Assembly (NCBI GenBank): GCA_045863395.1
Contig: BTVJ01000081.1
Span: forward strand, 1-33,638
Direction of reading: 5' to 3'
DNA: 33,638 bases
DNA from: Myxococcales bacterium
Lineage (GTDB): Bacteria > Myxococcota_A > UBA9042 > JABWCM01 > BTVJ01
Part shown: piece after piece, positions 4,030-32,301 of the stretch
Position numbering within the stretch: position 1 is the stretch's first letter
Layout of the letters: the number at the start of each line of letters is the position of its first letter
Made by a program: the position numbers and the translations under genes
Notes under the pieces: model-generated
What the model was told of the DNA's origin: nothing
Databases searched by the model: none
Seen by the model: the letters and a program-made list of their open reading frames with translations, nothing else

Positions 4030-4983
4030 ATGCTGTCAGAGCATGCAGCGAGGACCTTCCGGGAGCTCCAGGGTCGCATCTGCCAGGCGCTGGAGGACGT
4101 GGACGGCGCGGCGCGGTTCCGGGAGGACGCCTGGGAACGCGAGGGCGGAGGCGGCGGCCGCAGCCGCGTGATGACCGACGGCGCCGTCTTCGAGAAGGCC
4201 GGGGTCAACTGGTCGCTCGTGCACGGTGACCTCCCGGCTGAGATGGCAGATCAGCTCCCGGGCGACGGTCCCTTTCTGGCGACCGGTGTCTCGCTGGTGC
4301 TCCACCCCTGGAGCCCCATGGTCCCAGCGACCCACGCCAACTTCCGCTACTTCGAGCGCGGCGGGGCGGCCTGGGTCGGGGGCGGGTGTGACCTGACTCC
4401 CACCTACCCTTGGCTCGAGGACGTGGTCGCGTTCCACGGTGCCCTGGCGGAGGCGTGCGCGCCCCACGGGGAGGGGCTCTATCCACGCTTCAAGGCGTGG
4501 TGTGACGAGTACTTCGCATTGCCGCACCGCGGGGAGACCCGTGGCGTCGGGGGGCTGTTCTTCGACTACGTGGGCGTGGCGGCGGGCTCCCTCGGCCCGC
4601 GGGTCCGGGCCCACGCAGCGCGCGCCCTGCCTGACGCCATGGATCTGGACCGGGCGTTCGCCTTCGTCCAGGCCGTGGCCGACGCCTTTCTCGCAGCCTA
4701 TCTGCCGATCGTCGAGCGGCGCCGGGGGGAGCCCTGGACCGAGGCCGAGCGCGAGTTCCAGCTCATCCGCCGTGGCCGCTACGTGGAGTTCAACCTGCTC
4801 TTCGACCGGGGGACCGTCTTCGGGCTGCGCACGGGCGGGCGGACGGAGAGCATCCTGATGAGCCTGCCGCCCCTCGTGCGCTGGACCTACGACTACAGGC
4901 CCGCGCCCGGGTCACGGGAGGCGGAGCTGGCCGACTGGCTGCGCCCCCGAGACTGGCTCAATTGCCGAAGCCCGCACCCGTGA
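4030..4983 (+). CDS. hemF: Oxygen-dependent coproporphyrinogen III oxidase
   Basis: [91 protein letters not shown]. Confidence 0.97.
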
Positions 4984-16045: not shown

Positions 16046-16142
16046 GGTCGAGCGAGGCCGCATTCACTAGGTTGCGCACCGTGGGATGGGGACGGTGAAG
16101 CCGCCCCGATCAGAACCCCGCTTCAAGGAGATGATCAGCACC

Positions 16143-18047
16143 ATGAGCGCTCTCAATGCACTGTCGGGCGATCTGGCGTCGGGGAGCCCCAGCGCCGCCG
16201 CACCCAAGGTCAAGGTCGTCAAGCAGCAGATCGTGGAGTTCGTCTCCGACTCGGGTGAGGGTGCCCAGACGGCCGGCCAGCTCTTCGGGACCGTCAGCGC
16301 CAAGATGGGCAACGGCGTCTGGACCGTGGAGATCATCCCTGCGGAGATCGAGCCTCCCGTCCGCTCTCGCGCCGGCGCCAGCGGCAACCGCATCCGCATT
16401 GGCACGGACCCCGTGACCAACACGGGCGATGCCGCAGACGTGGTGGTCGCGTTCAATGAGCAGGTCATCTACAGCCGCATCGACGTGGGGGCCTTCCGGC
16501 AGGGGACGGTGATCTTCCTGGAGAACAAGTGGGCATCCGACCCGCAGCAGGAGATCCGCCAGGCCTACGCCGAGGCGGTCGCGGACTTCGAGGCCCGTGG
16601 CTACGAGGTGCGCGAGGTGCCGATGGAGGCGAAGTGCCTCGAGATAGTGCCCGACCCTCGGCGCGGCAAGAACGTCTGGTGTCTGGGGATGCTGTGCGCC
16701 ATCTACGAGCGGGACCTCGGCGTCGTGCGCGCGGAGATCTCCAAGAAGCTCAAGCGGAAGGGCGACGCCATCGTCGAGCAGAACTTCCGGCTGCTGCAGT
16801 CGGGCTACGACTGGGCCGTCGAGAACGTGCCCTTCCGCTACCGTGTGCCCGTGCGGCAGGCCACCGAGGCGATGGTCGTCATGAACGGCAACCAGGCCGC
16901 GGCGCTCGGCATCATGGCGTCCGGCGCCGAGATGTGCGCCATGTACCCCATCACGCCCGCCACCTCGGCGTCGCACTACCTGGCGAGCATCTTCCACAAG
17001 AGCGGCGGCTTCCTGCACCAGGCGGAGGACGAGATCTCGGCCATCGGGTTTGCCATCGGCGCCTCCTATGCCGGGAAGACCGCGTTCACCATCACCTCCG
17101 GGCCGGGCCTCGCGCTCAAGACCGAGTTCATTGGCCTCGCTGTGATGGCCGAGGTGCCGCTCGTGATCCTCGTGGTGCAGCGCGGCGGACCCTCCACGGG
17201 CCTGCCGACCCGCGTCGAGCAGGGCGACCTGCTGGCGTCCCTGTTCGGGGAGCCCGGCGACGCCCCCAAGATCGTGCTGGCGGCGAGCACCATCGAGGAG
17301 TGCTTTCACTTCATGATCACCGGCCGCAAGCTGGCCGAGGCGTTCCGTGGGCCGGTCATCGTCCTGACGGACGCGAACCTGGCCACCGGGCAGCAGCCCT
17401 TCCCCCGGCCCAAGCCCCTCGACGAGTGGATGGCGCCGCCCATCGACCAGTCGCCCTGGGACTCGACGGTCGCGCCCTACGCATGGGACCCGGACACGGG
17501 CCTCTCGGAGCGGCCGGTGCCCGGGCAGCCCGGCGGGCAGTACGTCCTGACGGGGCTCGCCCACGACGAGCGCTCCAAGGTGGCCTACGACACGGCGATC
17601 AACCAGCGCAGCTCCGAGATGCGGAGCCGCAAGCTGGCGACCCTGCTCAAGACGCTGCGTCCTCCGAAGATCTACGGGGCGGACTCGGGAGACCTCCTGG
17701 TCGTCGGGTGGGGCTCCACCAAGGGCGCCATCGAGGAGGCCGTCGACCGGGTCCGCGCGGACGGCGCCAAGGTGTCGGCCATCCACCTGCGGTTCCTGTC
17801 GCCTCTGGAACCCGGGCTCAAGGAGATCTTCTCTCGGTTCAAGAAGGTCTTCACGGTCGAGATCAACTACAGCGACGACCGCAGCGACGCCCACGTGACC
17901 CCGGAGAACCAGCGGTACGCCCAGCTCGCCTACGTGCTGCGCGCACAGACGCTGGTCGACGTGGACTGCTGGTCCAAGGTGCCCGGCGTGCCGCTGGCGC
18001 CCGCTACCATCGAGAACGAGCTGCGACGCCGCCTGGCGCAGGCGTAG
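16143..18047 (+). CDS. korA: 2-oxoacid:ferredoxin oxidoreductase subunit alpha (fused gamma-alpha type)
   Basis: DSGEG, MNGNQAAALG, YPITPAT, QAEDEISA, TSGPGLALK.E, QRGGPSTGLPT, GWGSTKGAI. AAGGAG at 16125-16130; start could be 16131 or 16143. Confidence 0.93.
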   Translation: MSALNALSGDLASGSPSAAAPKVKVVKQQIVEFVSDSGEGAQTAGQLFGTVSAKMGNGVWTVEIIPAEIEPPVRSRAGASGNRIRIGTDPVTNTGDAADVVVAFNEQVIYSRIDVGAFRQGTVIFLENKWASDPQQEIRQAYAEAVADFEARGYEVREVPMEAKCLEIVPDPRRGKNVWCLGMLCAIYERDLGVVRAEISKKLKRKGDAIVEQNFRLLQSGYDWAVENVPFRYRVPVRQATEAMVVMNGNQAAALGIMASGAEMCAMYPITPATSASHYLASIFHKSGGFLHQAEDEISAIGFAIGASYAGKTAFTITSGPGLALKTEFIGLAVMAEVPLVILVVQRGGPSTGLPTRVEQGDLLASLFGEPGDAPKIVLAASTIEECFHFMITGRKLAEAFRGPVIVLTDANLATGQQPFPRPKPLDEWMAPPIDQSPWDSTVAPYAWDPDTGLSERPVPGQPGGQYVLTGLAHDERSKVAYDTAINQRSSEMRSRKLATLLKTLRPPKIYGADSGDLLVVGWGSTKGAIEEAVDRVRADGAKVSAIHLRFLSPLEPGLKEIFSRFKKVFTVEINYSDDRSDAHVTPENQRYAQLAYVLRAQTLVDVDCWSKVPGVPLAPATIENELRRRLAQA

Positions 18048-18058
18048 AGGAGGACCGC

Positions 18059-19012
18059 ATGTTTGGACTGAAGCAGGACTGGGATCTGGAGAGCAAGTCG
18101 CGGTTCTTCGTGCTCGACGACTACCAGGGCGGTGTGCCCCGGTGGTGCCCCGGGTGCGGTGATCACGGCGTGCTGACCGCCGTGCAGCGCCTGGCCCGGG
18201 ACGAGCAGCTCGAGCCGGAGAAGACCGCCGTGATCAGCGGCATCGGCTGCTCGAGCCGCTTCCCCCACTACATGAAGACCTACGGGTTCCACGGGCTTCA
18301 CGGGCGCGCCCTGCCGGTGGCCTCCGGCGTGCGGTCCCGCCGCCCGGACCTCCACATGTTCGTGGTGACGGGCGACGGGGATTGCACCGCCATCGGCACG
18401 GCCCACTGGATCCACGCGATCCGCTACAACATGAAGATGACCGTGCTGTTGCTCGACAACAACATCTACGGTCTCACCAAGATGCAGACCTCGCCGACCA
18501 CGCCCAAGGGCAAGACGTCGTTCACCCACCCGACGGGGGCGCTGTTGAGCCCGCTCAACCCCCTGACCGTGACCATCGGCATCACCAACGCCTCCTTCGT
18601 CGCGCAGACCGTGGACTGGAACCCGGCGCACATGTTCTCGGTGCTCAAGGCGGCGCATCGCCACCCGGGGCTGGCCTTCGTGCGCGTCCTGCAGCGCTGC
18701 CCTCACTACATGCCCGGGTACTGGGATCCGATCATGCGCGACGCGCAGAAGGTGCTGCTCCTGCAGCACCCGGATGGGATCCAGCTCGATCCGGGCCTGG
18801 AGAAGTCCTTCCCCAACAAGACCGTCCACGATCCCCACGACCGGGGGGCGGCCTTCAAGATGGCGATGCACGACGACGTCGTGCCCATCGGGCTCCTGTT
18901 CCGCGACGACGAAGCGGAGCGCTACGACGAGATGTGCGCTCGCGGGCTCGGGATGGACAACGCCGACAAGATTCGGGCCCTCGATGCGGAGCTGGACCGG
19001 TTCCTGATCTGA
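18059..19012 (+). CDS. korB: 2-oxoacid:ferredoxin oxidoreductase subunit beta (TPP-binding)
   Basis: GAGGAGG RBS. WCPGCGD, SGIGCSSR, HGRALP, GDGD, DNNIYGLTK.Q.SPT and the third cluster Cys (QRCP) are all intact. Confidence 0.94.
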   Translation: MFGLKQDWDLESKSRFFVLDDYQGGVPRWCPGCGDHGVLTAVQRLARDEQLEPEKTAVISGIGCSSRFPHYMKTYGFHGLHGRALPVASGVRSRRPDLHMFVVTGDGDCTAIGTAHWIHAIRYNMKMTVLLLDNNIYGLTKMQTSPTTPKGKTSFTHPTGALLSPLNPLTVTIGITNASFVAQTVDWNPAHMFSVLKAAHRHPGLAFVRVLQRCPHYMPGYWDPIMRDAQKVLLLQHPDGIQLDPGLEKSFPNKTVHDPHDRGAAFKMAMHDDVVPIGLLFRDDEAERYDEMCARGLGMDNADKIRALDAELDRFLI

Positions 19013-19157: not shown

Positions 19158-22100
19158 GTGAGCACGGCGATCGCAACGGAATCCGAACGGATGGGTGCCT
19201 CGACGGCTGCCACGCAGGCGTCCGGCGGCAGTGTTGGAACGATCCTCTCCGGGCGCGACGCCATCAACGCGGCCGAGCGTGTGCTGTGCGGGGCCGGCGC
19301 TGTCGCCGATCCGGCGCGCGCCGAGGGGCTCGGCCTCGCAGGGCTCTCTGCGGCGAGCCTCCTCGGAGGCCGCGAGGCGGCGGTAGCGGCGGCCCCCTAT
19401 GTCGCCCACCGGCGCCGTCTGTCGCCCCCAGTTCCCGCCTTCGGAGCGTTCGAGCTGGTCGCGGAGAGCGTCCAGCAGGGCGTCGACCACTGCGTCGTGG
19501 CGCACAGGCTCGTCTCCGCATTGGGTGGTGCTGGGGCCTGCGTGCTGCCGGGGGCGCTTGCCTCCGACGTGGCGTTCGTGCGGCTCCCTGGCGCTGACGC
19601 CGCCCGCGCCGAGGGTGCGGCGGACGGAACCGAGGACGTCGTGGGCGCGTTCGAGGCGGCCGCTCGGGCTCTCGGGCGTCCGTGCAGGCCGTTCAGCGCC
19701 CTCCACGTAGACGGGGCCGATCACGTGATCGTGGCGGCTGGACCCGCGGCGTCGGTGGCGCGGCGGCTCGTCGATCTGCTTCGGGGGCGCGGCGTGTCGT
19801 GCGGCGCGCTCTCCGTGGCGCTGGTCAGGCCCATGGTCCCGCCGCTGCAGGAGCTGCTGCGGGCGCGCTCGTCGGTCATCGTCATCAGTGACGAGGCTGA
19901 CGAGGCGGGCTCGCTCCTCGCTCACGTCCGGCGGGCGCTCGCCCACGGGGGGCCCACCGTGGTCGGCGTTCCCTTCGTCGCAGGCGGGGAGTCCGAGCTG
20001 GTCGCCAGGGTCGCCGCTGCCCTTGGCGCCGAGATCAACGGCGACGCCAACGGCCTGCGCCTGGGTCCACCGCCGATGCCCGCGCGCTCCTTGTTGGCAG
20101 GCGCCGCTCCGGCCAGCCAGTGGAGCGACGAGCTCCTGCGAGGCGCCCTGTCGTGGGTTGGTGAGCGGATCAGCGTTGCACAGCCGGCACAGGGCGGTTT
20201 CGGGGCGTCGGTGCTCTCGGTGGCGAGGGCGGGGCTCCGTCCCGGTGCCGTGGAGGCCACCGCCGGGCTCGACATGCTGTTCGTAGCGCACCCCCGCCTC
20301 GTGAGCCCTGCGCTCGTCGCGCGGCTGCGGAGGGGGGGCGCGCTCCTCGTTCAGAGCGGCGCCGCCGACAGCGACGCCCTCTGGGCGGAGCTGAGCCCAG
20401 CACGCGCCAGGGCGATCACCGAGCAAGGCGCCAGCCTGCAGTGGGTGGATGCGGCGCAGTGTGCGCCCGCTGGCGATCCGGTCTGCGACCCGCGCGTGTT
20501 TCTGCAGGGTGCCATCCTCGGCGCCTTCGACGCGCTGGAGTCCGTGCTGCCGCCGTCTCAGGGCGGTCGGGTCCCGCAGGGGGCGGGGGCGGAGCTGCTG
20601 GGCCTGGGCGCGAGCGCAATCCGCAGGGCCTCGGACCCTCCGGCGAGCCTGTCGCCTCGCCCACAGGTGGGGACACCGCGCGTGCAGGCCGGGCCGGACA
20701 CGGTGGATCTGTCCTGGCGTGACGCCATCCGCCACTTCCATGTGACCGGGGAGGGAGGGTGGACCGGGGCCGACCCGCTCCCTGCGCTGCCGCTCATGCC
20801 GCTCCGGCTGACCGGACTGCTCTCGGGCGCCCCGCGGGATCTCCCGCTGGTGCTGACCGGGCAGGCGACGGGCCCCATCGCCCTGCCCCTGGCGCGAGTG
20901 ATCGCCAACGCCGTGGAGTCCTACGAGGCGTCGGGCAGCCCCTCTCTGGCCGTCGGGCCCCGTGTGGACCGGCTGCTCCGGGTCGCTGCCCGAGCGCTGG
21001 GGAGCGGCGCTCCACAGGCGCTCTCCAGTGTGATGGGCGCTGCGCTCGACGCCTTCGTCGCCGAGTTCCAGGTCAGCGACAAGGCCGCGCAGGCGCTCGG
21101 GGCCGAGGTGGCTCATCTCAAGCGGAGCCTGCCCGAGGGAGCGGCTGCGGTGGGACTCGGGCGGCACGCCGTCTTGGCCCTCCACGCGGCGGCGACCAAC
21201 AGGGCCCGGGCCGGGGCCGTGGCCACCGTCACGGCGGAGGTGCGGGAGCTCTGCCGCAAGCTCCAGGACCTGCTCCGGGTCGACGACGCCAAGTCGCCCG
21301 CGGCCCGCAGCGCCAGCGCCCTCTCGGCGGGCGTCGGGGCCGGCGCGCAGGATCTCATCGATTCCACTGCCCTTGCGGCGTCTCTGAAGACCCGCCGTGG
21401 GGCGACCAGCCTGTCACCCTCCCGGCGGGCACACATCGAGGCGACCATCGGCGTGCTCGCCGGTTGGCTGGGTGGGCGGCGAGCCAACGCCGTCGTGCTC
21501 CACAGCGGCCTCCTGGATGGCGTGGAGCTGGCAGACACGGACGTCGTCGCGCACCCCGACCCGCTGGAGGCTGCCGTCGGGGTCTTCGACGGGCTCAGCG
21601 GCAAGGTGGCCGCGCTGCTTCGCGCCGTGCGCCGCGCGCGCCTCGAGGCCGCTGGCGCGTATGATCCAGCCCTTCACGACGCGCCCATCGCGCGCCTGGG
21701 CTGGGAGAGCTTCACCGCCGACGAGCTCCGCCTCGTGCCCCCGGTCATCGTCGTGCAGGACGCCTCCGCCGTCCGCCAGGCGCTCGCGTCGTTCGCCGGC
21801 CTGCTGCGCTCGGGGCGCACCGTGCAGGTCATCGCGCTCGAGGGCGCCATGGGCGGCGAGCCGTCGCCGGACCGCTTCGGTCTGGGCTATCTGGCCGTGG
21901 CACATCGCGACGTGTTCGTGCTTCAAGGGACGCTGGGCCGGCCGCTCCACCTGGCGGAGGGGCTCTGCCGCATGGCGCGGGCGACGCGACCCGCCGTCGC
22001 GCTCGTCGCCGAGCCCGCGTGGGGCAGCGCCGCGCCCGAGTCCGTGCAGCTCGAGGCAGCGCTGCAGGGCCGCGGGACCCCCTGCTTCATCCATGATCCC

Positions 22101-23033
22101 GCCGCCGGACCGACCTGGGCCGAGCGCTTCGACCTCTCGGAGAACCCCGCGCCGGAGGCCCCGTGGGTCACGGCCGGCGCCGACGTCATCGGGCCCGACG
22201 GGGCTCCCACGCGGGTCGAGGGGCCGTTCACCTTCGCCCACGCCGCCGCCCTGGACCCGGACGCCCGGCTGCACCTGCGCCTGATCCCCTCCGCTGCGTG
22301 GAGCGACGAGCAGGTGGAGGTGGCCGAGTGGCTCGCTGGCGATGGCGGCACGCCGCGTGTGCCGTATGTGGAGGTGGTCGACGAGGCTGGCCAGGTGCGC
22401 CGCGCGGTCATCTCACGGGAGCTGGCCTGGGCGGCGCGGGACAGGGCCCAGTTCTGGAGGGTCCTGCAGGAGCTCGCCGGAACCAACAATGAGTATGCCG
22501 AGCGTGCGGCCGCGGCGGCGCGGGCGCGCGCCATCGAGGAGGCCGACGAGCGGCTCGCGGCGGCCGCGGCGCAGCACGCGGCCCAGCTCGACCAGGCGCG
22601 GGCCGAGACCGCCCGCGAGGCCCTCGAGAAGGTGGCGCGGGTGCTCCTGGACCTGGACCTGGCGGCACCGGCGCCCGCGCGTGCCGTCGTGACGGCGCCC
22701 CCGGCGCTCACGGCGCCGCCCTCCGCGGTGGCCGAGGCGGTCGCGCCGGCCCCAGTGGTGGACGCGGCCGCCGAGGAGGACGCATCGTTCGACGAGGCGT
22801 ACCTGGACACCCCGCTGTGCACGACCTGCAACGAGTGCATCAACCTGAACCCGCGCATGTTCAAGTACAACGCCGACAAGCAGGCGCTGCTGGCGGACGT
22901 GACGGCGGGAACCTTCGCCCAGCTCGTGGCGGCGGCCGAGAAGTGCTCTGCCCGCTGCATCCACCCCGGCAAGCCCCGGAAGGGTGACGCGTCGGCCACG
23001 CCGGACGTGCTCGCGCGCGCCGCGGCGCTGTAG
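19158..23033 (+). CDS. Degenerate PFOR/NifJ-like protein with C-terminal single-cluster ferredoxin domain
   Basis: GGGAGG RBS and GTG start. PFOR-like remnants AESVQQGVDHCVVAHRL, GADHVIVAAG..LVDLLR..G.LSVALVRP, LAVAHRDVFVLQ, GPFTFAH, WRVLQELAG. C-terminal CTTCNEC...AAEKC. No YPITP and no GDG. Confidence 0.8.
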   Translation: MSTAIATESERMGASTAATQASGGSVGTILSGRDAINAAERVLCGAGAVADPARAEGLGLAGLSAASLLGGREAAVAAAPYVAHRRRLSPPVPAFGAFELVAESVQQGVDHCVVAHRLVSALGGAGACVLPGALASDVAFVRLPGADAARAEGAADGTEDVVGAFEAAARALGRPCRPFSALHVDGADHVIVAAGPAASVARRLVDLLRGRGVSCGALSVALVRPMVPPLQELLRARSSVIVISDEADEAGSLLAHVRRALAHGGPTVVGVPFVAGGESELVARVAAALGAEINGDANGLRLGPPPMPARSLLAGAAPASQWSDELLRGALSWVGERISVAQPAQGGFGASVLSVARAGLRPGAVEATAGLDMLFVAHPRLVSPALVARLRRGGALLVQSGAADSDALWAELSPARARAITEQGASLQWVDAAQCAPAGDPVCDPRVFLQGAILGAFDALESVLPPSQGGRVPQGAGAELLGLGASAIRRASDPPASLSPRPQVGTPRVQAGPDTVDLSWRDAIRHFHVTGEGGWTGADPLPALPLMPLRLTGLLSGAPRDLPLVLTGQATGPIALPLARVIANAVESYEASGSPSLAVGPRVDRLLRVAARALGSGAPQALSSVMGAALDAFVAEFQVSDKAAQALGAEVAHLKRSLPEGAAAVGLGRHAVLALHAAATNRARAGAVATVTAEVRELCRKLQDLLRVDDAKSPAARSASALSAGVGAGAQDLIDSTALAASLKTRRGATSLSPSRRAHIEATIGVLAGWLGGRRANAVVLHSGLLDGVELADTDVVAHPDPLEAAVGVFDGLSGKVAALLRAVRRARLEAAGAYDPALHDAPIARLGWESFTADELRLVPPVIVVQDASAVRQALASFAGLLRSGRTVQVIALEGAMGGEPSPDRFGLGYLAVAHRDVFVLQGTLGRPLHLAEGLCRMARATRPAVALVAEPAWGSAAPESVQLEAALQGRGTPCFIHDPAAGPTWAERFDLSENPAPEAPWVTAGADVIGPDGAPTRVEGPFTFAHAAALDPDARLHLRLIPSAAWSDEQVEVAEWLAGDGGTPRVPYVEVVDEAGQVRRAVISRELAWAARDRAQFWRVLQELAGTNNEYAERAAAAARARAIEEADERLAAAAAQHAAQLDQARAETAREALEKVARVLLDLDLAAPAPARAVVTAPPALTAPPSAVAEAVAPAPVVDAAAEEDASFDEAYLDTPLCTTCNECINLNPRMFKYNADKQALLADVTAGTFAQLVAAAEKCSARCIHPGKPRKGDASATPDVLARAAAL

Positions 23034-23042
23034 GGGGGGAGG

Positions 23043-23900
23043 ATGGACGCCCTGGCCACAGGGGGAGCGATCCTGCTCGGGGTGACGCTGGTCTTTGGCA
23101 CCGTGCTGGCCATCGCCAACAAGTACCTGCGGGTCATCGAGGATCCGCGCATCGACGTGGTCGAGGGCAAGCTGCCGGGCAGCAACTGCGGAGCCTGCGG
23201 GCAGCCCGGGTGCCGCGCCTTCGCCGAGGCGGTGGTCGGCGGCGCTCTCAACCCGGGCAAGTGCTCGGTGAGCTCCCCCGAAGGAATCGCCGACATCGCC
23301 GCCTACCTCGGCGTCGAGGCGGCGATGGAAGAGAAGCGTGTCGCGCGCCTCCACTGCGCGGGCGGCTCGTCGTGCGTCCCCAAGGTCGCGGACTATCAGG
23401 GCATGTCGTCCTGTCGTGCGGCCTTCGTCGTCAACGGAGGGGGGCGTGCGTGCGCCTGGGGGTGCCTCGGCCTCGCCGACTGCGAGGTTGCCTGCACCTT
23501 CGACGCCATCCGCATGAACGGCGACCACCTGCCGGTCGTGGACGTCGACAAGTGCACCGCCTGCAACGCCTGCGTCGAGGTGTGCCCCCTGCACCTGTTC
23601 ACGCTGGAGCCCATCTCACGCAGGCTCATCGTCCAGTGCAGCTCGCCGCTCGCGGCGGACGCCGCGCGCGCCACCTGCACCGTGGCCTGCGACGCGTGCG
23701 GGCGCTGCGCCCTCGACGCGAAGCCCGGGGTCATCGAGATGAAGCGTGGGCTGCCCGTCATCGTGAACCCGGCCGGCGCGACCGAGGAGGCGACCTTCCG
23801 GTGCCCGAGCGGCGCCATCCAGTGGGTGACCGGCAACCAGTTCCAGGCCGAGGACGCCCGGCCCGTCAGCCGACCAGTCAGGAGGATCCGCCATGCGTAG
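23043..23900 (+). CDS. rnfB: Rnf complex subunit B (membrane-anchored polyferredoxin)
   Basis: N-terminal TM helix, EDPRID..LPGSNCGACGQPGC, CAWGCLGLADCEVAC.FDAI, CTACNACVEVCP, CDACGRC...CP. Confidence 0.93.
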   Translation: MDALATGGAILLGVTLVFGTVLAIANKYLRVIEDPRIDVVEGKLPGSNCGACGQPGCRAFAEAVVGGALNPGKCSVSSPEGIADIAAYLGVEAAMEEKRVARLHCAGGSSCVPKVADYQGMSSCRAAFVVNGGGRACAWGCLGLADCEVACTFDAIRMNGDHLPVVDVDKCTACNACVEVCPLHLFTLEPISRRLIVQCSSPLAADAARATCTVACDACGRCALDAKPGVIEMKRGLPVIVNPAGATEEATFRCPSGAIQWVTGNQFQAEDARPVSRPVRRIRHA

Positions 23901-26900
23901 CTGGTTGGGGGCCGTCCGCAAGCTGCGGGCGCTGTTCGGGCGCGCCGAGGAGGCAGCGCCGGTCCCGTTCCCCGGGAGCGATGCCCTGGTCAGCGGGGAG
24001 CAGGCGGCGTTGGTGACGGAGGCCCTCCTTGCCGACGGCATCTGGCGCGCGACGGTGGGGGCGGGGGCGTCCTCTCGCTTCGACACCGAGGAGCTCGACC
24101 TTCCGCCCAACGCCTTTGGCGACACCGTGTCACACCACGTGGTCGGTGGGGGCGCAGACGCGGTGGCTGGAGCCGCCGGCCTTGCGATGACCGGGCAGCG
24201 CGCTGCGGTGTTCCTGACCGGCGAGCGCCTCCTGGAGGCCCACGGAGCGCTCCGCGCGGCCGTGGAGAGGCACCTGCCGCTCGTGCTCCACGTCTCCTGT
24301 GATCCTGGCCACGGGGGCGCCTCCGGTCCGGGCAACGGGCATGAGGCCGTCCACGCCATCGCGGATACGGGGGCCGTCGTGCTCTTCGCCAGTGACGCGC
24401 AGGGGGTGGTCGACGCGACGCTCATGGCGCGGCGCGTGGCCGAGCTGGCGCTGGTGCCGGTGGTCATCGCGATGGACGGGCCCGAGACGGCGTGGGGCGT
24501 CCAGGACGTGAAGCTTGCGGGCGCCGCGTTGATCGCCGAGTACCTTGGTGCGTCCGGCGATGCCATCGACGCGCCTACCCCGGCGCAGCGGCTCCTGTTC
24601 GGGGAGTCGCGGCGGCGGGCGCCGCGCTGGTTCGACCCGGACCGCCCCGTCGCCCTCGGGGCCTCCCTCGCTGGGGACGACCTGGCGATGGCGCTGGTCG
24701 GTGAGACCATCTTCTTCGGGGCCCACGCGCGGCCCATCGTCCACGAGTCGAGCGAGCGGCTCGTGGCTTTGACGGGGCGGTCACTCTCCCCTCTGGTGGC
24801 CCACCGAACCGACGACGCCGAGTCGGTGGTCGTCCTCCTGGGCGCATCCGTGGAGTCCGCGACCACCCTGGCCGACTCCCTGCGAGCCAGCGGAGCCCGG
24901 GTCGGGGTGCTCGGCGTGAGCCTCGTGACGCCCTTCCCCTCCAGAGAGGTCGCGGCGGCGCTCCGCGGCGCCCGGGTGGTGACCGTCGTCGAGCGCGTGG
25001 ATGGCGCCCTCGCAGCGGGCGGGCCGCTGTGGCACCAGGTCCGCGCTGCGCTGGCCGGATCCGAGACGCAGGTGGTCGCCGCGACCGCGGGCCTCGGCGG
25101 ACGGCCGGTCTCCGGCGCTCAGCTCGCGGCCGTCTTTCGCCAGATGGGCGAAGGGGGAGACCCGCGCTCGCTGCTGCACCTGGATCTGGCGCCCCTCGAG
25201 GAGCGCTCCCGCTTCCCGAAGCGCGAGATGGTCCAGCAGGCCGTGCGCCGCGCCTACCCGGATCTGGAGCGCTGGGCCGCCAAGGGGTCGAGCCCGACGC
25301 TGCGGCCGGCATCTGCCCGCGTCGTGGCCCTCTACGGCGGTGTGGCGGACATCCGGGAGGAGGCCATCGAGGCACTCGCGGTCGCTCTGAGTGATGCCGG
25401 TCCTCGCGTCCGGAGCTACGCCACCACGCTCGCCCAGGGCGTCTGGGCAGGGCGCGTCGGAGCGGCAAGAGAGCCAATAGGGGCGCTGGAGGGGCCCGTC
25501 GAGGCGGCCCTGGTGCGGAGCCTGGATCTGCCGGCTGCGCTGGACCCGCTCGTCGACCTGAGGTCCGGGGGGACGCTGATCATCGCCACCGACCTGCGCG
25601 GCGAGGCGCTCTGGCGCGCCCTGCGACCCGCCTGGCGAGAGGGCGTGCGGACCCGGTCGGCGCGCCTGCTCGCTGTCAGCGGTGGCTTCGAGGAGCTGGT
25701 GGCCGCGCTGCATGGTGGAGAAGAGGTCGCGTGGGCGGGCCTCGACTCCCCAGCGGCGCCTGCGGTCCCCGCTTCGTTGCCCATGGCGGTGCGGCGCTTC
25801 GGCGACCACGGCGCTGCCTTCGACAGCGTGCCTCGATTCCATGGCGAGGTGGTCGAGCCGCGCCTCGGGGGTGAGGCCCCGGGCACTGCGCCCGATCCCT
25901 TCCCGTCTCTGCGCCTCACCCCGGCGGGGACGGCGTCGCTGCGGGACCGCTCTGCGGTGCGCACTCATGTGCCCGTCGTCGACCTCGCCGGCTGTACGGG
26001 CTGCGGCGTCTGCTGGGCGGCCTGCCCGGACGGCGCGCTGGCGGCGACGGCGCTCCCCCTCGTCGAGCTGCTGGACGCGGCGGCGGGGCGGGTGCGTCGC
26101 GACGCGCCGGATCCCGCGGCGGACAAGCTCCGCCGCGCCCACAAGCAGCTCGCGGCGCGGCTTGAGGGCGACCTCGCAAAGGGGGCAGCCCTGGACCGCG
26201 CGACCCTGGACGCGGCGTGGGAGTGGCTCGCGGGCCGCATGGGCGTCGAGGGCGACGAGCGCGCTGCCATGGGAGTCGCCCACGCGGCGACGTCCGACGA
26301 GCTCCTCCGCGCTCCGCTGGCCGCCACTCGCGCCCTGTTCCATGAGCCCCACGCTGCGGAGAAGGGCACGGGCGCGATCCTCAGCCTCGTGGTCGACCCC
26401 CACGCCTGCCAGGGATGTGGCGTGTGCGTCAAGGAGTGCCCGGCGGGCGTCATCGCCAAGGTCCCACAGGACGGTCCCGCGGTGGATCGCCTGCGCCTGG
26501 GCTTCGCTGCCTGGGAGGCCCTGCCGGAGACGCCCGGTCCCGTGATCGCCAGGGCCCGGGAGCGGGTCCAGCCGGGGCCGCTCCCGGCCATCCTCATGTC
26601 CCGCGCCTGCCACTTCGCCCTCGCCGGTGGCGACGCGGCGGAGCCCGGGTCCGGGGAGCGGCTCGCGACCCGGCTGGTGGCGGCGACCACGGAGTATTCG
26701 CAGCAGCGCCGCTCCCTGGCCGCCCTGCGCGAGGCGGACGAGCTCCTGGAGGCGCTGCGGGCCAGGCTGCGGACTTCTCTCGCGGGCGGAGTCGCCACCG
26801 ACCGGCTGGACGTCCTCGACGCCGCGCTCCACGGCACGACGGGGAAGGGCGCCGGTGAGCTGGTCGTGCGTCTGGAGGCGTTGGGCGAGCGATCCACCAT

Positions 26901-28164
26901 CGACCGGAAGACCCTCGCGCGGCTCGTGCAGGCTGCGCGGGGGGTTGAGGCGCTGCGCGACTCCCTGGTCGACGGTCCCACGGGCTACGGGCGGGCGCGC
27001 TTCGGGTTGGTCGCCACGGATGGCACGGTGCGGGAGTGGGCCGCGGGCTGGCCCTACAACCCGTTCTCGGTTCCGCTGACCATGGATCTCGGTGGCAACG
27101 CCGTCGAGGTGGCGCGCGGTGTGGTTGAGGGGCTGCTGGCGCGCCGGGTGGACGAGGTCCGTGCGCTGCGCCTCGCGCGCCTCGCTCTGGATGCCCCCTC
27201 GGACGTCGTGGCGCGGGAGCGGGCGCTCACCGGGCTGCGCTGGTCCGACCTGAGCGACGACGAGCTGCTCCTCGCGCCGCCGCTGCTCCTGCTGGTGGGC
27301 GCCGAGGGCCTCTCCGAGCGCGCCCTGACCGGCCTCGGGCGCCTGCTGGTCTCGGATCTCCCCATCAAGGTCGTGCTGCTCGACGGGCGGGATCTGCTGG
27401 CACCGAGCCCCGACGCGACCCTGGTGGCGCTCGCCCACCGGTCGGCCTTCGTGGTTGCGGGCTCCGTCGCGCACCCGGACCACCTGTTCCGGGGCGTCGA
27501 GGGGGCCCTGGCCCACCCCGGGCCCGCGCTGCTGCACCTGCACGCGCCGTCCCCGCTGCGCCATGGCTACGCCCCCGAGCTGCTGCTCGTCCGGGCGCGG
27601 GAGGCCGTCGCCGCGCGGGTCCACCCGCTGGCCGTCTACGATCCGAAGGATGACGGGGTCTTCGGGCGGCGCTTGTCCGTCGATGGGAATCCCGACCGTA
27701 ACGCCACCTGGTCCCAGGATGGCGACGGGCGTGCCTTCACCGCTGCCCACTGGGCTCTGGGCGAGGCGCGTTTCGCTCCCCACATGGGTGTGGACGCGAG
27801 CGCCCCGGCCCTGGACCGCTGGGCAGCCCTCGGTTGGTCGGAGCGGCGCCGCTCCTCCGCCACCTTCGAGGCCGGCGGCACCCGGAGCCTGGCGCCACCT
27901 CTGGCCCGGGCGGTGGCCGAGCGGGCCGACCGCTGGCGGACCCTGCAGGAGCTTGCGGGCGTCGCGTCTCCCTTCGTCGACACGGTGAGAGCCCAGGTGG
28001 ATGGCGAGGTCCGGGCGACCTGGACCGCCGAGGTCGCCGCGGCCCGAGCCGAGGCCGAGCAGCGCATCGCCGCGGCGGCCAGGCAGCAGGAGGACGACCA
28101 GGTGGCGCGGCTCCGCGACCGGCTGATGGCGCTGGCCGGCTACGGCCCGGGCGCGCGGGGGTAG
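23893..28164 (+). CDS. Degenerate PFOR/NifJ-like protein retaining two [4Fe-4S] ferredoxin motifs
   Basis: PFOR domain order is recognisable (AGLAMTGQRA, GHE....DTG, DAESVVVLLG, PFP). CTGCGVCWAACP at 25993-26028 and CQGCGVCVKECP at 26407-26442. WPYNPF.VP and WRTLQELAG present; catalytic motifs substituted. AGGAGG RBS, 8-bp overlap with rnfB. Confidence 0.85.
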   Translation: MRSWLGAVRKLRALFGRAEEAAPVPFPGSDALVSGEQAALVTEALLADGIWRATVGAGASSRFDTEELDLPPNAFGDTVSHHVVGGGADAVAGAAGLAMTGQRAAVFLTGERLLEAHGALRAAVERHLPLVLHVSCDPGHGGASGPGNGHEAVHAIADTGAVVLFASDAQGVVDATLMARRVAELALVPVVIAMDGPETAWGVQDVKLAGAALIAEYLGASGDAIDAPTPAQRLLFGESRRRAPRWFDPDRPVALGASLAGDDLAMALVGETIFFGAHARPIVHESSERLVALTGRSLSPLVAHRTDDAESVVVLLGASVESATTLADSLRASGARVGVLGVSLVTPFPSREVAAALRGARVVTVVERVDGALAAGGPLWHQVRAALAGSETQVVAATAGLGGRPVSGAQLAAVFRQMGEGGDPRSLLHLDLAPLEERSRFPKREMVQQAVRRAYPDLERWAAKGSSPTLRPASARVVALYGGVADIREEAIEALAVALSDAGPRVRSYATTLAQGVWAGRVGAAREPIGALEGPVEAALVRSLDLPAALDPLVDLRSGGTLIIATDLRGEALWRALRPAWREGVRTRSARLLAVSGGFEELVAALHGGEEVAWAGLDSPAAPAVPASLPMAVRRFGDHGAAFDSVPRFHGEVVEPRLGGEAPGTAPDPFPSLRLTPAGTASLRDRSAVRTHVPVVDLAGCTGCGVCWAACPDGALAATALPLVELLDAAAGRVRRDAPDPAADKLRRAHKQLAARLEGDLAKGAALDRATLDAAWEWLAGRMGVEGDERAAMGVAHAATSDELLRAPLAATRALFHEPHAAEKGTGAILSLVVDPHACQGCGVCVKECPAGVIAKVPQDGPAVDRLRLGFAAWEALPETPGPVIARARERVQPGPLPAILMSRACHFALAGGDAAEPGSGERLATRLVAATTEYSQQRRSLAALREADELLEALRARLRTSLAGGVATDRLDVLDAALHGTTGKGAGELVVRLEALGERSTIDRKTLARLVQAARGVEALRDSLVDGPTGYGRARFGLVATDGTVREWAAGWPYNPFSVPLTMDLGGNAVEVARGVVEGLLARRVDEVRALRLARLALDAPSDVVARERALTGLRWSDLSDDELLLAPPLLLLVGAEGLSERALTGLGRLLVSDLPIKVVLLDGRDLLAPSPDATLVALAHRSAFVVAGSVAHPDHLFRGVEGALAHPGPALLHLHAPSPLRHGYAPELLLVRAREAVAARVHPLAVYDPKDDGVFGRRLSVDGNPDRNATWSQDGDGRAFTAAHWALGEARFAPHMGVDASAPALDRWAALGWSERRRSSATFEAGGTRSLAPPLARAVAERADRWRTLQELAGVASPFVDTVRAQVDGEVRATWTAEVAAARAEAEQRIAAAARQQEDDQVARLRDRLMALAGYGPGARG

Positions 28165-28169
28165 GGCAG

Positions 28170-29462
28170 ATGGCCACGTTCCGCCACGGGGTCCACCCGG
28201 AGGAGCACAAGGAGGCGACGGCGGGGCTCCCCATCGAGCGCATGCGCTTCGTGGGGGAGCACGTCCTTCACCTCGCCCAGCACATCGGGGCCCCGTCGCG
28301 CGCGCTGGTCCGCGCAGGCGACAAGGTCGTCCGCGGCCAGATGATCGGGGCGCCCGGAGGCTTCGTCTCGACGGCGCTCCACGCTCCGGTCACCGGGACC
28401 GTGAAGGCCATCGAGCTGCGCCCGCACCCGTCGGGGCGCCTCCAGGAGGCCATCGTCATCACGACGGACCCCTTCGCGACGCAGACCATCGACGCGCGCC
28501 TGCCGGTCAACGGGTCCCTCGTGAAGCAGGTCCAGGACGCGGGCATCGTGGGCCTGGGGGGCGCGGCGTTTCCAAGCCACGTCAAGCTGAGCGTCCCCGA
28601 GGGCAGGAAGGTCCGTCACGTCATCATCAACGGCTGCGAGTGCGAGCCCTTCCTGACCTGCGACCACCGGATCATGGTGGAGCGGCCCGAGGCGGTCGTG
28701 CGCGGCCTGCGGCTCCTCATGACGCACCTCGGCGCCGAGCGCGGCGTCATCGGGGTCGAGCGCAACAAGCCGGACGCCGTCGAGGCCCTGAGCAGGCTCA
28801 CCGCTGAGATGCCCGACGTGGAGGTCGTGGCGCTCCACGTCAAGTACCCCCAGGGCGCCGAGAAGATGCTCATCGACGCCGTCTTCAAGCGAGAGGTGCC
28901 GAGCGGCAAGCTGCCCCTCGACCTGGAGATGGTCGTCAACAACGTGGGCACCGTCGCCGCCATCGCGAACCTGGTCGACCAGGGGACGCCGCTGGTGGAG
29001 CGCGTCGTGACCGTGACGGGCCCGGGCATCCGGCGGCCGGCCAACGTGCTGGTGCCGCTCGGCACCCCGGTGCAGGCGGTCATCGACCACTGTGGGGGCC
29101 TCCTCCCCGAGACGCGCCAGGTGATCCTCGGCGGCCCCATGATGGGTCAGGCCCAGAAGTCGCTGGACATCCCGGTGACCAAGGGCACCTCGGGCGTCCT
29201 GGCGCTGCTGCGGCCCATGGAGCTGGCCGTAGAGGAGCCGTGCATCAAGTGCGGCCGCTGCCTCGAGGCCTGCCCCATGTTCCTGAACCCGTCGCGCCTC
29301 GGCCTGCTCGCCAGGGCGGAGGACCACGTCGGGCTCAAGCAGTACCACGCCCTCGACTGCGTGGAGTGCGCGAGCTGCTCGTTCGTCTGCCCGTCGTACA
29401 TCCCGCTGGTCCAGCTCATCCGCGTGGGCAAGGCGCTCGTCCGCCAGAAGGAGGCTCGGTGA
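28170..29462 (+). CDS. rnfC: Rnf complex subunit C
   Basis: TFRHGVHP, QHIGAP, HAPVTGTV, AGIVGLGGAAFPSHVKL, INGCECEPFLTCD, KYPQGAEK, GGPMMG, CIKCGRCLEACP, CVECASCSFVCP. Confidence 0.97.
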   Translation: MATFRHGVHPEEHKEATAGLPIERMRFVGEHVLHLAQHIGAPSRALVRAGDKVVRGQMIGAPGGFVSTALHAPVTGTVKAIELRPHPSGRLQEAIVITTDPFATQTIDARLPVNGSLVKQVQDAGIVGLGGAAFPSHVKLSVPEGRKVRHVIINGCECEPFLTCDHRIMVERPEAVVRGLRLLMTHLGAERGVIGVERNKPDAVEALSRLTAEMPDVEVVALHVKYPQGAEKMLIDAVFKREVPSGKLPLDLEMVVNNVGTVAAIANLVDQGTPLVERVVTVTGPGIRRPANVLVPLGTPVQAVIDHCGGLLPETRQVILGGPMMGQAQKSLDIPVTKGTSGVLALLRPMELAVEEPCIKCGRCLEACPMFLNPSRLGLLARAEDHVGLKQYHALDCVECASCSFVCPSYIPLVQLIRVGKALVRQKEAR

Positions 29463-30463
29463 TGGGCTCGCGCCCCGCAGACCTGCAGATCGCCACCGCG
29501 CCCTTCGTGCACCAGGGTCAGAGCACCCGCCGGGTGATGCTCGAGGTGGTCGCGGGGGCCCTGGTCATCGCCGCCGTGGCCACGTGGTACTTCGGCCTGG
29601 CGGCCATCCTGCTCATCGTGACCGCCGTCATCGGCGCGTGCGGCACCGAGTGGCTGCTCCAGCCGGCCCCGCGCAAGGGGCTCGGCAGCCTGCGCGACGG
29701 CAGCGCGCTCCTGACCGGCCTCCTGCTGGCGTTGACGCTCCCCCCGTCCATGCCCCTGTGGATGGCCCTGCTCGGCGGCGTCGTGGGCGTCGGCCTCGGC
29801 AAGGTCATCTGGGGTGGGCTCGGGCAGAACATGTTCAACCCCGCTCTCGTCGGGCGCGCCTTTCTCCAGGCCGCCTTCCCGACGGCGATCACCACCTGGA
29901 CCGCCCCGGGCCAGGAGTTCATGAAGATCTCCTCGAGCACCGTGGCCGCCCCGCTGCTCCACGGGAACGTGGACATCGTGACCAGCGCCACCCCGCTCGG
30001 CATGGCCAAGTTCGAGAAGCACTTCATGGACCTCGGGCCCATGCTCAGCGGCAACACCGCCGGGTCGCTCGGCGAGACGGCGGCCATCGCGCTGATCGTC
30101 GTCGGCCTGGTACTTGGAGTTCGGCGCATCTTCGACTGGCGCCTGCCGGTCTCCACGCTCCTGACGGCGGCCATCTTCGCGGGCATCGTCCACCTGGTCG
30201 CGCCGGAGTCGTACCCCAGCCCGCTCTTTGTCCTGACGTCGGGCGGGCTGCTCTTCGGCGCCGTGTTCATGGTGACCGACCCCGTCACGACCCCGATCAC
30301 GCCGAAGGGGGCCTGGATCTACGGCGTGGGCGTCGGGCTGCTGGTCGTCCTGATCCGCTTCTGGGGTGGCCTGCCGGAGGGGGTCATGTACGCGATCCTG
30401 CTCATGAACGGGGTCACCCCGCTCATCAACCGCGCGACCCAGCCGCGGCGCTTCGGAGGGTGA
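29462..30463 (+). CDS. rnfD: Rnf complex subunit D
   Basis: DGSALLTGLLLALTLPP, GGLGQNMFNPALVGRAFL, FMN-attachment motif TSATPL, GSLGET, FMVTDPVTTP, PEGVMYAILLMN. TGATG coupling to rnfC. Confidence 0.97.
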   Translation: MGSRPADLQIATAPFVHQGQSTRRVMLEVVAGALVIAAVATWYFGLAAILLIVTAVIGACGTEWLLQPAPRKGLGSLRDGSALLTGLLLALTLPPSMPLWMALLGGVVGVGLGKVIWGGLGQNMFNPALVGRAFLQAAFPTAITTWTAPGQEFMKISSSTVAAPLLHGNVDIVTSATPLGMAKFEKHFMDLGPMLSGNTAGSLGETAAIALIVVGLVLGVRRIFDWRLPVSTLLTAAIFAGIVHLVAPESYPSPLFVLTSGGLLFGAVFMVTDPVTTPITPKGAWIYGVGVGLLVVLIRFWGGLPEGVMYAILLMNGVTPLINRATQPRRFGG

Positions 30464-30464
30464 C

Positions 30465-31106
30465 GTGAGCACGAACGAGCCCTCTGCCTCTCGCCTGATC
30501 GCGACCATGGCCATCGCCGGCCTCACGTCGGGCCTGCTGCTGGTCGGCGCCTATCTGGGGACGCTGCCGACCATCCAGCGCAACCAGGCCGAGGCTCTCC
30601 GCGCGGCGGTGTTCCGCGTGGTGCCCGGCTCGGCGACCATCGACGCCTGGATCTGGAAGGGTGACCGCCTGGTGCGCTACGACGGCCCGAAGGACGCGCT
30701 CCCCGAGGGAGAGGCCGTCTATGCCTGCTCGGCAGAGAGCGGCGAGGTGGTCGGCTGGGCCATCCCGGGCGCCGGGCCCGGCTTCCAGGACACCATCGCC
30801 CTGATCTACGGCTACGACCCGGCCCGCAAGGTCATCGTGGGCATGGAGGTCCTGGAGAGCCGCGAGACGCCGGGCCTCGGCGACAAGATCCAGAAGGACG
30901 CCCACTTCGTGGCCAACTTCGACGCCCTGGCCGTGGAGCCGTCCATCGTGGCGGTGAAGCCCAACGAGAAGCACAACCCCAACGAGGTGGACACCATCTC
31001 GGGCGCGACGATCTCGTCCAAGGCGGTCATCCGCATCCTCAACCAGAGCACCGGCGTCTGGGTCGAGCGCCTCGCCGCGCACCCGGCCGCGGAGGTCGCC
31101 CCATGA
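30465..31106 (+). CDS. rnfG: Rnf complex subunit G
   Basis: N-terminal TM helix, GPGFQDTI, ETPGLGDKI, flavinylation motif DTISGATISS. Confidence 0.95.
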   Translation: MSTNEPSASRLIATMAIAGLTSGLLLVGAYLGTLPTIQRNQAEALRAAVFRVVPGSATIDAWIWKGDRLVRYDGPKDALPEGEAVYACSAESGEVVGWAIPGAGPGFQDTIALIYGYDPARKVIVGMEVLESRETPGLGDKIQKDAHFVANFDALAVEPSIVAVKPNEKHNPNEVDTISGATISSKAVIRILNQSTGVWVERLAAHPAAEVAP

Positions 31107-31723
31107 CGGACAGCCGCGCCGTCCAGGAGCTCGTCAAGGGCCTCTGGCGCGAGAACCCCATCTTCGTGGCCGTGCTCGGCCTCTGCCCGGCCATGGCCGT
31201 GACCAACTCGCTGCGCAACGGCCTGGTCATGGGCATCGCGACCCTGTTCGTGCTCGTCGGGTCGAGCCTCCTGGTCTCGCTCCTTCGCAAGGTCATCCCG
31301 AAGCCCGTGCGCATCTCGGTCTACATCATCATCATCGCGACCTTCGTGACCATGGTGGACTTCGCGCTCGCCGCCGCCATGCCCGACGCCCACAAGGAGC
31401 TCGGGGCCTTCATCGCCCTCATCGTGGTCAACTGCGTGATCCTGGGGCGCCAGGAGGCCTTCGCGTCGCGCAACACCGTGGGGCTGGCCGTGATGGACGC
31501 CGTCGGCATGGCCGGCGGCTTCACCATCGCCATGGCGATGATCGGCGGCATCCGCGAGATCCTCGGTAGCGGGAGCCTGCTCGGCATGCCGCTCTTCGGG
31601 GCGGAGTTCGAGCCGTGGGCCATCATGATCCTGCCCCCCGGAGGGTTCTTGACGATGGGCGCGCTGCTGATGACGTTCGCGTGGGTCAAGGAGCGCCGGG
31701 CGCTGGCCGAGCGGAGGGCCTGA
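31103..31723 (+). CDS. rnfE: Rnf complex subunit E
   Basis: GLWRENP, LGLCPAMAVT, LIVVNCVILGR.EAFA, IREILG.G, ILPPGGF. ATGA overlap with rnfG. Confidence 0.96.
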   Translation: MTDSRAVQELVKGLWRENPIFVAVLGLCPAMAVTNSLRNGLVMGIATLFVLVGSSLLVSLLRKVIPKPVRISVYIIIIATFVTMVDFALAAAMPDAHKELGAFIALIVVNCVILGRQEAFASRNTVGLAVMDAVGMAGGFTIAMAMIGGIREILGSGSLLGMPLFGAEFEPWAIMILPPGGFLTMGALLMTFAWVKERRALAERRA

Positions 31724-32301
31724 TGGGAGAGCTGGTCTTCATCTTTGCGTCGGCGAGCTTGATCAACAACTTCACGCTGGCCTACTTCCTCGGCCTGTGC
31801 CCGTTCTTCGGGGTCACGGGGCGCCTGGACACGGCCTTCCGGCTTGGCCTGGCCAACGTCTTCGTGCTGCTGATCACGTCCTTTGCCGCCTGGCTCCTCA
31901 ACACCTTCGTGCTGGTCCACGCCCCCTACCTGCGGCTGATCAGCTTCATCGTCGTCATCGCGAGCACCGTGCAGTTCGTGGAGATGGTCATCAAGAAGGC
32001 GTCACCGGCGCTGTTTCGCGCGCTGGGCATCTTCCTGCCGCTGATCACCACCAACTGCGCTATCCTGGGCCTCGCCCTGTTCCAGACGAGCAAGGGCTAC
32101 GGCCTCGTCGAGGGGCTGGTCTACGCGCTCGGCGCGGGCGTGGGCCTGACCCTGGCGCTGGTCATCATGGCGGGAATCCGCGAGGAGGCCGAGCTGTCCA
32201 CGGTGCCGCAGCTCGTGCGCGGCACGGCCATGAGCTTCTTCATCGCCGGCATCCTGTCCATGGCCTTCATGGGCTTCGCCGGCCTGTTCGCGGAGGCCTG
32301 A
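31723..32301 (+). CDS. rnfA: Rnf complex subunit A
   Basis: LINNFTLAYFLGLCPFFG, VIASTVQFVEM, LGIFLPLITTNCAILG, MAGIRE, AGILSMAFMGF. TGATG coupling to rnfE. Confidence 0.96.
   Translation: MGELVFIFASASLINNFTLAYFLGLCPFFGVTGRLDTAFRLGLANVFVLLITSFAAWLLNTFVLVHAPYLRLISFIVVIASTVQFVEMVIKKASPALFRALGIFLPLITTNCAILGLALFQTSKGYGLVEGLVYALGAGVGLTLALVIMAGIREEAELSTVPQLVRGTAMSFFIAGILSMAFMGFAGLFAEA

Follow-up and report, generated by a model that had tools for sequence, protein, structure and literature searches.

Two 2-oxoacid:ferredoxin oxidoreductases (OFORs) of the two-subunit kind, the 2-oxoglutarate:ferredoxin oxidoreductase (OGOR) of Magnetococcus marinus (6N2N) and the OFOR of S. tokodaii (5B46), are described as using free ferredoxin. 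In pyruvate:ferredoxin oxidoreductase (PFOR), domains I and VI bind thiamine diphosphate (ThDP), domain III binds coenzyme A (CoA), and domains VI and V carry the proximal and the two distal clusters, respectively; the two-subunit OGOR class lacks domain V (available text of a 2026 review, PMC13768988). PFOR genes have also been reported between rnfB2 and rnfC2, with pyruvate assumed to be the electron donor (PMC4287430, in the part consulted). Here we describe psB, the open reading frame (ORF) 23893-28164 on a 33,638-nucleotide contig from a Myxococcales bacterium (BTVJ01000081.1; the whole stretch is referred to as the window), which encodes a 1423-aa PFOR paralogue between rnfB and rnfC. 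Judged from its sequence, psB stands outside the active PFORs and is a real, conserved pseudoenzyme. With moderate confidence, we regard it as a non-catalytic scaffold and electron relay that, together with a second dead PFOR paralogue (psA), wires the operon's KorAB to Rnf. The name X is used for a short psA-like gene of related operons.

Motif loss and conservation in psB

A first-pass annotation, made by eye from the window's letters, had proposed that psB selectively lost the active-site motifs of PFOR and kept both distal cluster motifs. Our alignments agree with it in almost every detail. YPITP is replaced by RATVGA (aa 52-57, 24046-24063), the region of the ThDP-activating Glu reads VVGGG (aa 83-87), the proximal-cluster motif reads AEPGSGE (aa 916-922, 26638-26658), VLLD (aa 1161-1164) runs straight into GRDLL with the YSNTGGQ segment deleted, and the last proximal Cys is missing from APSPLRHG (aa 1218-1225). 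Both CxxCxxCxxxCP motifs are perfect (aa 701-712 and 839-850). The reading of the Mg/ThDP motif as GAEG was right as to the letters (aa 1136-1139, 27298-27309) and one residue off in register: in the ungapped alignment the Asp of GDG falls on A1137, and the full GDG...N motif is absent, its first part reading VGAEG and its Asn segment being deleted. When the N-terminal half was aligned to Desulfovibrio africanus PFOR, G87 fell opposite the Glu of QSE and D137 opposite the Arg of TAR. Domain VI was placed through 17 motif-intact long relatives that are themselves in register with the D. africanus enzyme. Three losses had been overlooked, namely the third proximal Cys (ATGC motif), which is T1045 in psB, the substrate Arg at D137, and the CoA loop of domain III, which is eroded in psB and reads HSxGGWGA in 23 intact relatives. 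The nine positions that we assume, from the PFOR literature, to be key for catalysis are all altered (Thr gap, G87, D137, E917, S920, T1045, S1220, A1137 and Asn gap). psB has no spare Cys for a proximal cluster; because 8 of the 10 Cys of psB lie inside the two distal motifs, replacement proximal ligands are ruled out. Nor is the motif loss a sequencing artefact, since an independent 10,055-nt contig spans psB with 6 differing letters and zero gaps.

Domain searches and modeling gave a consistent picture. Pfam detected degenerate POR_N and PFOR_II domains and two Fer4 motifs, without a ThDP-binding domain or the gamma domain PF01558, the latter being detected in an intact relative. The score against the NifJ equivalog TIGR02176 was 96.2 bits (cut-off 911.35), and that against the PorD/KorD model was 39.6 bits, under its cut-off of 60. 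An AlphaFold model of aa 30-1229, built with 54 sequences, reached a mean confidence (pLDDT) of 85.5 and a predicted template modeling score (pTM) of 0.83. A structure search with this model returned PFOR/OOR folds on top, PFORs first (E 2e-40), and domains I-II superposed on the alpha subunit of oxalate oxidoreductase (5c4i) with a Z score of 31.8 and a root-mean-square deviation (rmsd) of 2.3 Å over 376 residues. Motifs and model thus indicate a PFOR fold with domains I, II and VI, and a domain V with two [4Fe-4S] motifs. The C-terminal region, which lies outside the model, contains no ferredoxin, and by analogy with psA its helix-like run may be helical.

The family was collected by a protein search (108 matches among 8000 scored candidates) and a genome scan with psB-specific patterns, in which the best 80 of 367 confirmed relatives were retained as the set of loci for the synteny counts (65 Pseudomonadota, 5 Myxococcota, 2 Planctomycetota, 1 Acidobacteriota and 7 unassigned). 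The family alignment comprised 159 psB rows, of which 158 are distinct and 114 remain at under 70% identity, together with 17 motif-intact long forms and 4 NifJ sequences; the NifJ sequences are misaligned over domain VI and were not used as a reference there. As psB rows are search matches plus locus ORFs of at least 1200 aa without YPITP, the loss of YPITP among them does not count as independent evidence. The alignment omits P0002 (an identical sequence), three psA-like matches and short fragments.

The per-site conservation suggested with the first-pass annotation shows that the motif losses are family-wide. The first two proximal Cys are replaced by Glu in 150 and by Ser in 154 of the 159 psB rows, and the last by Ser in 143; a proximal Cys is retained in 1-2 rows at any position, against 17/17 in the intact long relatives. 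Likewise, the Mg/ThDP Asn is kept in 0/159 and the ThDP-activating Glu in 4/159 (17/17 in the intact forms). Conservation was partial for the substrate Arg (95/159) and the Mg/ThDP Asp (56/159). New residues have become fixed around the dead cluster site (E917, S920, R927, P1219-S1220-P1221 and R1223), and all eight distal Cys are present in 148/159 rows, or 105 of the 114 representatives under 70% identity. Across 11 pairs of related loci, which are not independent and none of which includes the window, the ratio of non-synonymous to synonymous substitution rates (dN/dS) was 0.10-0.29 for psB, 0.05-0.13 for psA and 0.01-0.09 for korB. Purifying selection, the fixed new residues and the retained distal ligands support the earlier proposal of repurposing rather than decay. 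In the phylum of the window, 25 of 201 genomes gave a match at E<=1e-60, with dead and intact forms mixed.

A 1647-aa protein (P0097) keeps four proximal Cys, the distal clusters and a C-terminal ferredoxin and lacks YPITP and the Mg/ThDP Asn; by these motifs, it is possibly a partly decayed intermediate stage. A metagenome scan aimed at it returned intact parents only, and its genomic context was not found.

The operon, psA and the intact relative

psB sits inside a complete rnf operon that is conserved in four named phyla. The window contains ten same-strand genes in the order korA, korB, psA, rnfB, psB, rnfC, rnfD, rnfG, rnfE and rnfA (Table 1), with gaps of -8 to 11 nt except for 145 nt before psA. 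Among the loci that could be evaluated, rnfB lies immediately upstream of psB in 61/65, psA adjoins in 54/60, korB precedes psA in 49/55, and rnfC is downstream of psB in 55/72. Flanked by rnfB and rnfC and close to both KorAB and another dead paralogue, psB has a context that the first-pass annotation did not use and that indicates which electron-transfer system it serves. Searches of the window found no sigma-70 promoter and no meaningful terminator. Of four RNA runs taken from the 17 listed, one yielded the 10,055-nt contig, which extends from korB to rnfC and, with DNA carry-over possible, is a hint of operon transcription in this organism. In the window RnfB and 64 rnfB ORFs of the other loci, we observed a single full CxxCxxCxxxCP motif and an invariant C-terminal W..G.QF tail; we take the last domain of this RnfB to hold one cluster, versus two in clostridial RnfB.

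Table 1. Features of the window and short form X genes of related loci (positions in the window unless a locus is given).
Feature	Position	Strand	Basis or remark
hisS	520-1848		ordinary neighbour
DUF5924/DUF2914 protein	1853-3061		ordinary neighbour
Coproporphyrinogen oxidase	4027-4983		ordinary neighbour
OppA-like binding protein	10597-12246		ordinary neighbour
PP2C phosphatase	13654-15048		ordinary neighbour
korA, OFOR alpha (domains III-I-II); YPITP/E/R intact, 16-residue insert	16086..18047	+	TIGR03710 above cut-off
korB, OFOR beta; four proximal Cys and GDGD intact	18059..19012	+	
psA, second predicted dead PFOR paralogue, 1291 aa, no distal clusters	19158..23033	+	
psA flexible linker	about 22650-22793	+	
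psA C-terminal single-cluster ferredoxin Cys	22818-22838, 22944-22946	+	
rnfB; stop overlaps psB start by 8 nt	23043..23900	+	
psB, predicted catalytically dead PFOR paralogue, 1423 aa	23893..28164	+	ORF, Pfam, motif alignment, AlphaFold model
psB domains I-II (alpha-like); fold kept; YPITP, Glu (G87), Arg (D137) lost	23980..25197	+	PF01855, PF17147
psB domain III remnant; CoA-binding loop eroded, least conserved part	25300..25722	+	approximate boundaries
psB domain V; two CxxCxxCxxxCP motifs (25993-26028, 26407-26442) around ~80-residue predicted helical insert	25945..26472	+	
psB domain VI remnant; E917/S920/T1045/S1220 for proximal Cys, ~105-residue predicted helical insert	26602..27702	+	
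psB C-terminal region; conserved W..LQELAG...PF, helix-like run, LAGY	27910..28140	+	
rnfC, 5 nt past psB	28170..29462	+	TIGR01945 above cut-off
rnfD	29462..30463	+	TIGR01946 above cut-off
rnfG	30465..31106	+	TIGR01947 best match, below cut-off
rnfE	31103..31723	+	TIGR01948 above cut-off
rnfA	31723..32301	+	TIGR01943 226.9 bits, cut-off 229.3
X, 330- or 494-aa, unannotated	L103:7440-8435; L105:8468-9490; L119:14873-16357; L120		no Pfam match

KorAB appears to be the working enzyme of the operon, with complete catalytic motifs in 35/35 KorA and 39/39 KorB aligned copies and the two-subunit Magnetococcus OGOR (6N2N) as its best match in the PDB. A 16-residue insert is found in 31/35 operon KorA copies, is present in the four aligned operons with korAB and the intact parent enzyme described below, and is missing from the free-standing KorA of the same genome; from its distribution, we consider it a candidate docking element. 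The genome additionally encodes an intact NifJ (contig C54), a second KorAB, a second rnfB/rnfC, a 2-oxoglutarate dehydrogenase E1 and a citrate synthase. As an intact NifJ and these other enzymes are present, psB is not the genome's pyruvate enzyme. For KorAB in the window genome, we infer 2-oxoglutarate as the substrate and the oxidative direction.

psA and psB show complementary losses, psB having kept the two-cluster domain and psA the tethered C-terminal ferredoxin. psA has neither distal nor proximal ligands, and carries the four C-terminal ferredoxin Cys in 54/54 copies. In 48/54, its start corresponds to about residue 700 of the parent, and domains I-III are absent. In its model (pLDDT 87), a helix of 53 residues and a disordered linker of 45 residues join domain VI to the ferredoxin. 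In all six operons that combine korAB with an intact parent, korB and rnfB are separated by a clusterless gene, X. The 494-aa form of X is 27% identical to psA across 434 aa (E 4e-32). The ~330-aa form matches psA by profile (83%, E 8e-6); no significant similarity emerged when it was compared as a single sequence with psA or, by profile, with psB. It has 293 matches, the named ones being Gemmatimonadota. Fe-S motifs are absent from these short proteins, and by their similarity the X genes appear to be clusterless, dead domain-VI paralogues related to psA.

Both psA and psB are closer to a motif-intact PFOR-type enzyme of about 1650 aa than to NifJ. This enzyme (the parent) has intact motifs, both helical inserts of psB, and the C-terminal ferredoxin that psB lacks. 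It occupies the slot between rnfB and rnfC both without korAB (L112, L116, L117, L126, L127, L130 and the second rnfB copy of L069) and with korAB (L105, L109, L110, L119, L120 and, in part, L103), and stands alone without rnf in L111, L121, L122 and L125. No X was found before rnfB in 6/6 korAB-free operons (1.9-6.5 kb of upstream sequence, three by BLAST only). Since these loci were hand-picked from search matches, they describe a pattern and not a statistic. L069 has a single rnfCDGEA and two rnfB genes, one ahead of psB and one ahead of the intact enzyme, and psB, psA and the intact parent all occur in the cultured Thiocystis violacea DSM 208. L121, L122 and L125 hold a third motif-intact PFOR type of ~1570-1590 aa, without a C-terminal ferredoxin or rnf neighbours.

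In a careful tree, psA and psB each form one clade (support 100/99 and 100/100, respectively), and psA groups with X at 88/97. The psA and psB subtrees are mirrored across phyla, as would be expected of an operon moving as a unit. The nesting of psB among the intact parents in quick trees collapses in the careful one and was discarded. Likewise, positions that psB shares with korAB-linked or korAB-free parents (24 versus 15 scattered sites) formed no clear patch. That psA and psB descend from the ~1650-aa enzyme of the same rnfB-rnfC slot is shown at the level of sequence comparison.

Two further genes lie within the window. On the minus strand (4958-9136), a 1392-aa protein combines five IPT/TIG stretches with a Cys-rich patch and probably has a lipoprotein signal, and at about 12350-13626 (plus strand) we noted a pentapeptide-repeat protein with a low-complexity tail.

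Possible roles of psB

According to the reading that we favour, in which psB is a non-catalytic scaffold and relay between KorAB and Rnf, the parent enzyme would have been attached to Rnf, delivering its electrons through the swinging ferredoxin that it carries on a tether. A dead, beta-like copy of it (psA or the short form X) may then have become an adaptor recruiting KorAB, and in the lineage of the window the parent copy would have lost catalysis, surviving as psB because of its contacts. Electrons could pass from the proximal cluster of KorB to the tethered ferredoxin of psA, through the distal clusters of psB to RnfB, and from there to NAD+ with ion pumping, a path reversible in principle. 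The presumed stages would be found in living genomes as enzyme alone, enzyme with KorAB and a minimal dead beta subunit, and fully dead enzyme.

Several observations weigh against this proposal. psA is not adjacent in 6/60 loci; in favour of the proposal, it is located elsewhere in 5/5 tested genomes without an adjacent psA (within 1.5 kb of korB in 2/5). Seven tubeworm-symbiont loci lack rnfCDGEA behind psB: korAB-psA-rnfB-psB stay together, sucCD comes next and rnfCDGEA lies elsewhere. This arrangement agrees with a module that connects to a common Rnf core via RnfB, and the presence of sucCD after psB agrees with 2-oxoglutarate as the substrate. Most distal Cys are lost in 11/159 psB rows, two of them (L023 and L074) in complete operons. 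The deeper branching collapses in the careful tree, which leaves the order of events unfixed, and the ~1650-aa parent, itself a predicted enzyme, scores under the NifJ cut-off. Finally, the whole-chain rmsd of the psB model to solved PFORs is 25-29 Å; the divergent domain arrangement may be real or an artefact of the model. In the tubeworm-symbiont loci, where rnfC is missing after psB, a NuoF-like gene lies upstream of korA (L020:1002-2291). The distal Cys that remain in the cluster-less psB lineage (L023, L074 and nine database proteins) are mainly the first one and the last one in each motif.

As cluster-less psB occurs in complete operons, its clusters are not always needed, and on the scaffold-and-relay reading the distal clusters would be dispensable for the electron path in one lineage. 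For the same reason, scaffolding would be the primary role and the relay optional. The first-pass annotation had left the choice between an electron-transfer and a structural subunit open; with distal ligands absent from 11/159 psB rows, the structural half of this guess is now the better supported. In an unlikely but serious alternative, psB is purely structural (a platform or shield), electrons pass from KorB through the psA ferredoxin directly to RnfB, and the psB clusters are stabilising or vestigial. The cluster-less members and the invariant ferredoxin Cys of psA (54/54) are in agreement with this, but the eight ligands survive together in 148/159 rows (105/114 representatives), which goes beyond what drift would leave at 30-40% identity.

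The splitting of the operon, with rnfCDGEA detached in tubeworm symbionts and psA detached in six loci, could also mean that psA and psB work as large, soluble, ferredoxin-like carriers whose genes are regulated together with korAB and rnf but which do not bind KorAB or Rnf stably. We consider this rather improbable, because a 150-kDa fold, a clusterless X and a cluster-less psB make no sense as free carriers, and the insert of the operon KorA is missing from the free-standing KorA. Less probable again is a regulatory role, with psB as a pseudoenzyme whose remodelled pocket detects a metabolite or the redox state and which gates Rnf or KorAB. The residues fixed around the dead cluster site and the substrate Arg persisting in 95/159 rows would suit such a sensor, but the Arg is lost in the window psB (D137), the ThDP and CoA positions vary freely, and the fixed residues can be read as filling an empty cavity. 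Residual catalysis, whether psB alone compensates through other residues or shares a hybrid active site with KorA/KorB, is very improbable: the fold of domains I-II is fully kept and the protein is named PFOR in databases and papers, but its 10 Cys leave none for a proximal cluster, each of the nine key positions is altered, and an intact NifJ is encoded on C54. A decaying pseudogene, to which the dN/dS of psB above that of korB and rnfB in the same pairs might point, is refuted by the selection data (open frame, dN/dS of 0.10-0.29, one clade in several phyla) and has practically no chance of being correct.

A broader version of the scaffold-and-relay reading is tentative and, in our estimate, somewhat short of an even chance. 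It would make the assembly an Rnf plug-in of many microaerobic and sulfur-oxidising bacteria, in which the PFOR-derived psB scaffold and the swinging-arm ferredoxin of psA allow KorAB-Rnf exchange without free ferredoxin, its stages are still living, and some tubeworm 'PFOR' carbon-fixation genes are adaptors.

Comparison with described systems

Genes of this type have appeared in symbiont data under other names. The Escarpia laminata symbiont transcribes korA, korB, por-like, rnfB, por, sucC and sucD (PMC6315080, in the part available), with log transcripts per million of 2.64 and 2.37 for the two por genes (Table S1), and por was counted as the PFOR of the reductive tricarboxylic acid (rTCA) cluster (Text S1 Note 2 and Table S1 of the same paper). 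The record of this symbiont among our loci (L020) has the same gene order, which identifies the two por genes as psA and psB, the latter motif-less. In Riftia, three genes with consecutive locus tags, korA, korB and one named 'PFOR-like ferredoxin', fall together (log fold changes -2.62, -2.57 and -1.91; consulted portion of PMC11636981); from its position, we infer the last to be psA. The transcription of both dead genes in the Escarpia symbiont and this joint decrease in Riftia speak for the reading that we favour. An identification of psA/psB with the 'KorCD' of Rubin-Blum et al. proved wrong, KorABCD there being a different, Hdr/Flx-linked enzyme.

Genome papers treat these genes as working PFORs (PMC4287430 and PMC6315080, as far as their text was available). 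Neither inactive paralogues nor Rnf-embedded forms are described in the accessible parts of the 2026 PFOR review (PMC13768988), PMC12337175 or the Rnf review PMC12174285, the last of which describes no psB-like subunit there. In the literature searched, in which subscription papers are thinly covered, we found no description of psA/psB-type genes as pseudoenzymes. If our reading is true, the operon encodes an OFOR-Rnf supercomplex built with pseudoenzymes, whose direct electron channelling is absent from the literature searched. For annotation, the rTCA 'por' of the Escarpia laminata symbiont is by gene order a motif-less psB, and metabolic reconstructions in which these genes stand for pyruvate synthases count that step too often.

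The locus thus apparently brings known parts into an undescribed combination. With NifJ-type PFORs (D. africanus 1B0P, M. thermoacetica 6CIN), psB shares the domain order I-II-III-V-VI, the fold and the two-cluster domain V, but it lacks the ThDP, CoA and proximal-cluster residues and has two large helical inserts. It is about 31% identical to the ~1650-aa parent (for example, P0074-P0089), with the same inserts and the same slot; the parent keeps the nine key residues and the tethered ferredoxin, whereas psB has lost both. The gene between rnfB2 and rnfC2 of the Solemya velum symbiont is presumably of this parent type. The operon KorAB is of the same kind as the M. marinus OGOR and the S. tokodaii OFOR, likewise without domain V, but unlike them it is co-encoded with dedicated dead Fe-S paralogues. 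As a non-catalytic two-cluster relay acting in trans, psB may be a functional analogue of the PorD/KorD delta subunit of four-subunit OFORs, from which it differs in its size of 1423 aa and in the loss of clusters in some members. Finally, all six genes of the Rnf complex (RnfABCDGE) are present in the window, in the order B, C, D, G, E, A, but here with a 4.3-kb pseudoenzyme gene wedged between rnfB and rnfC.

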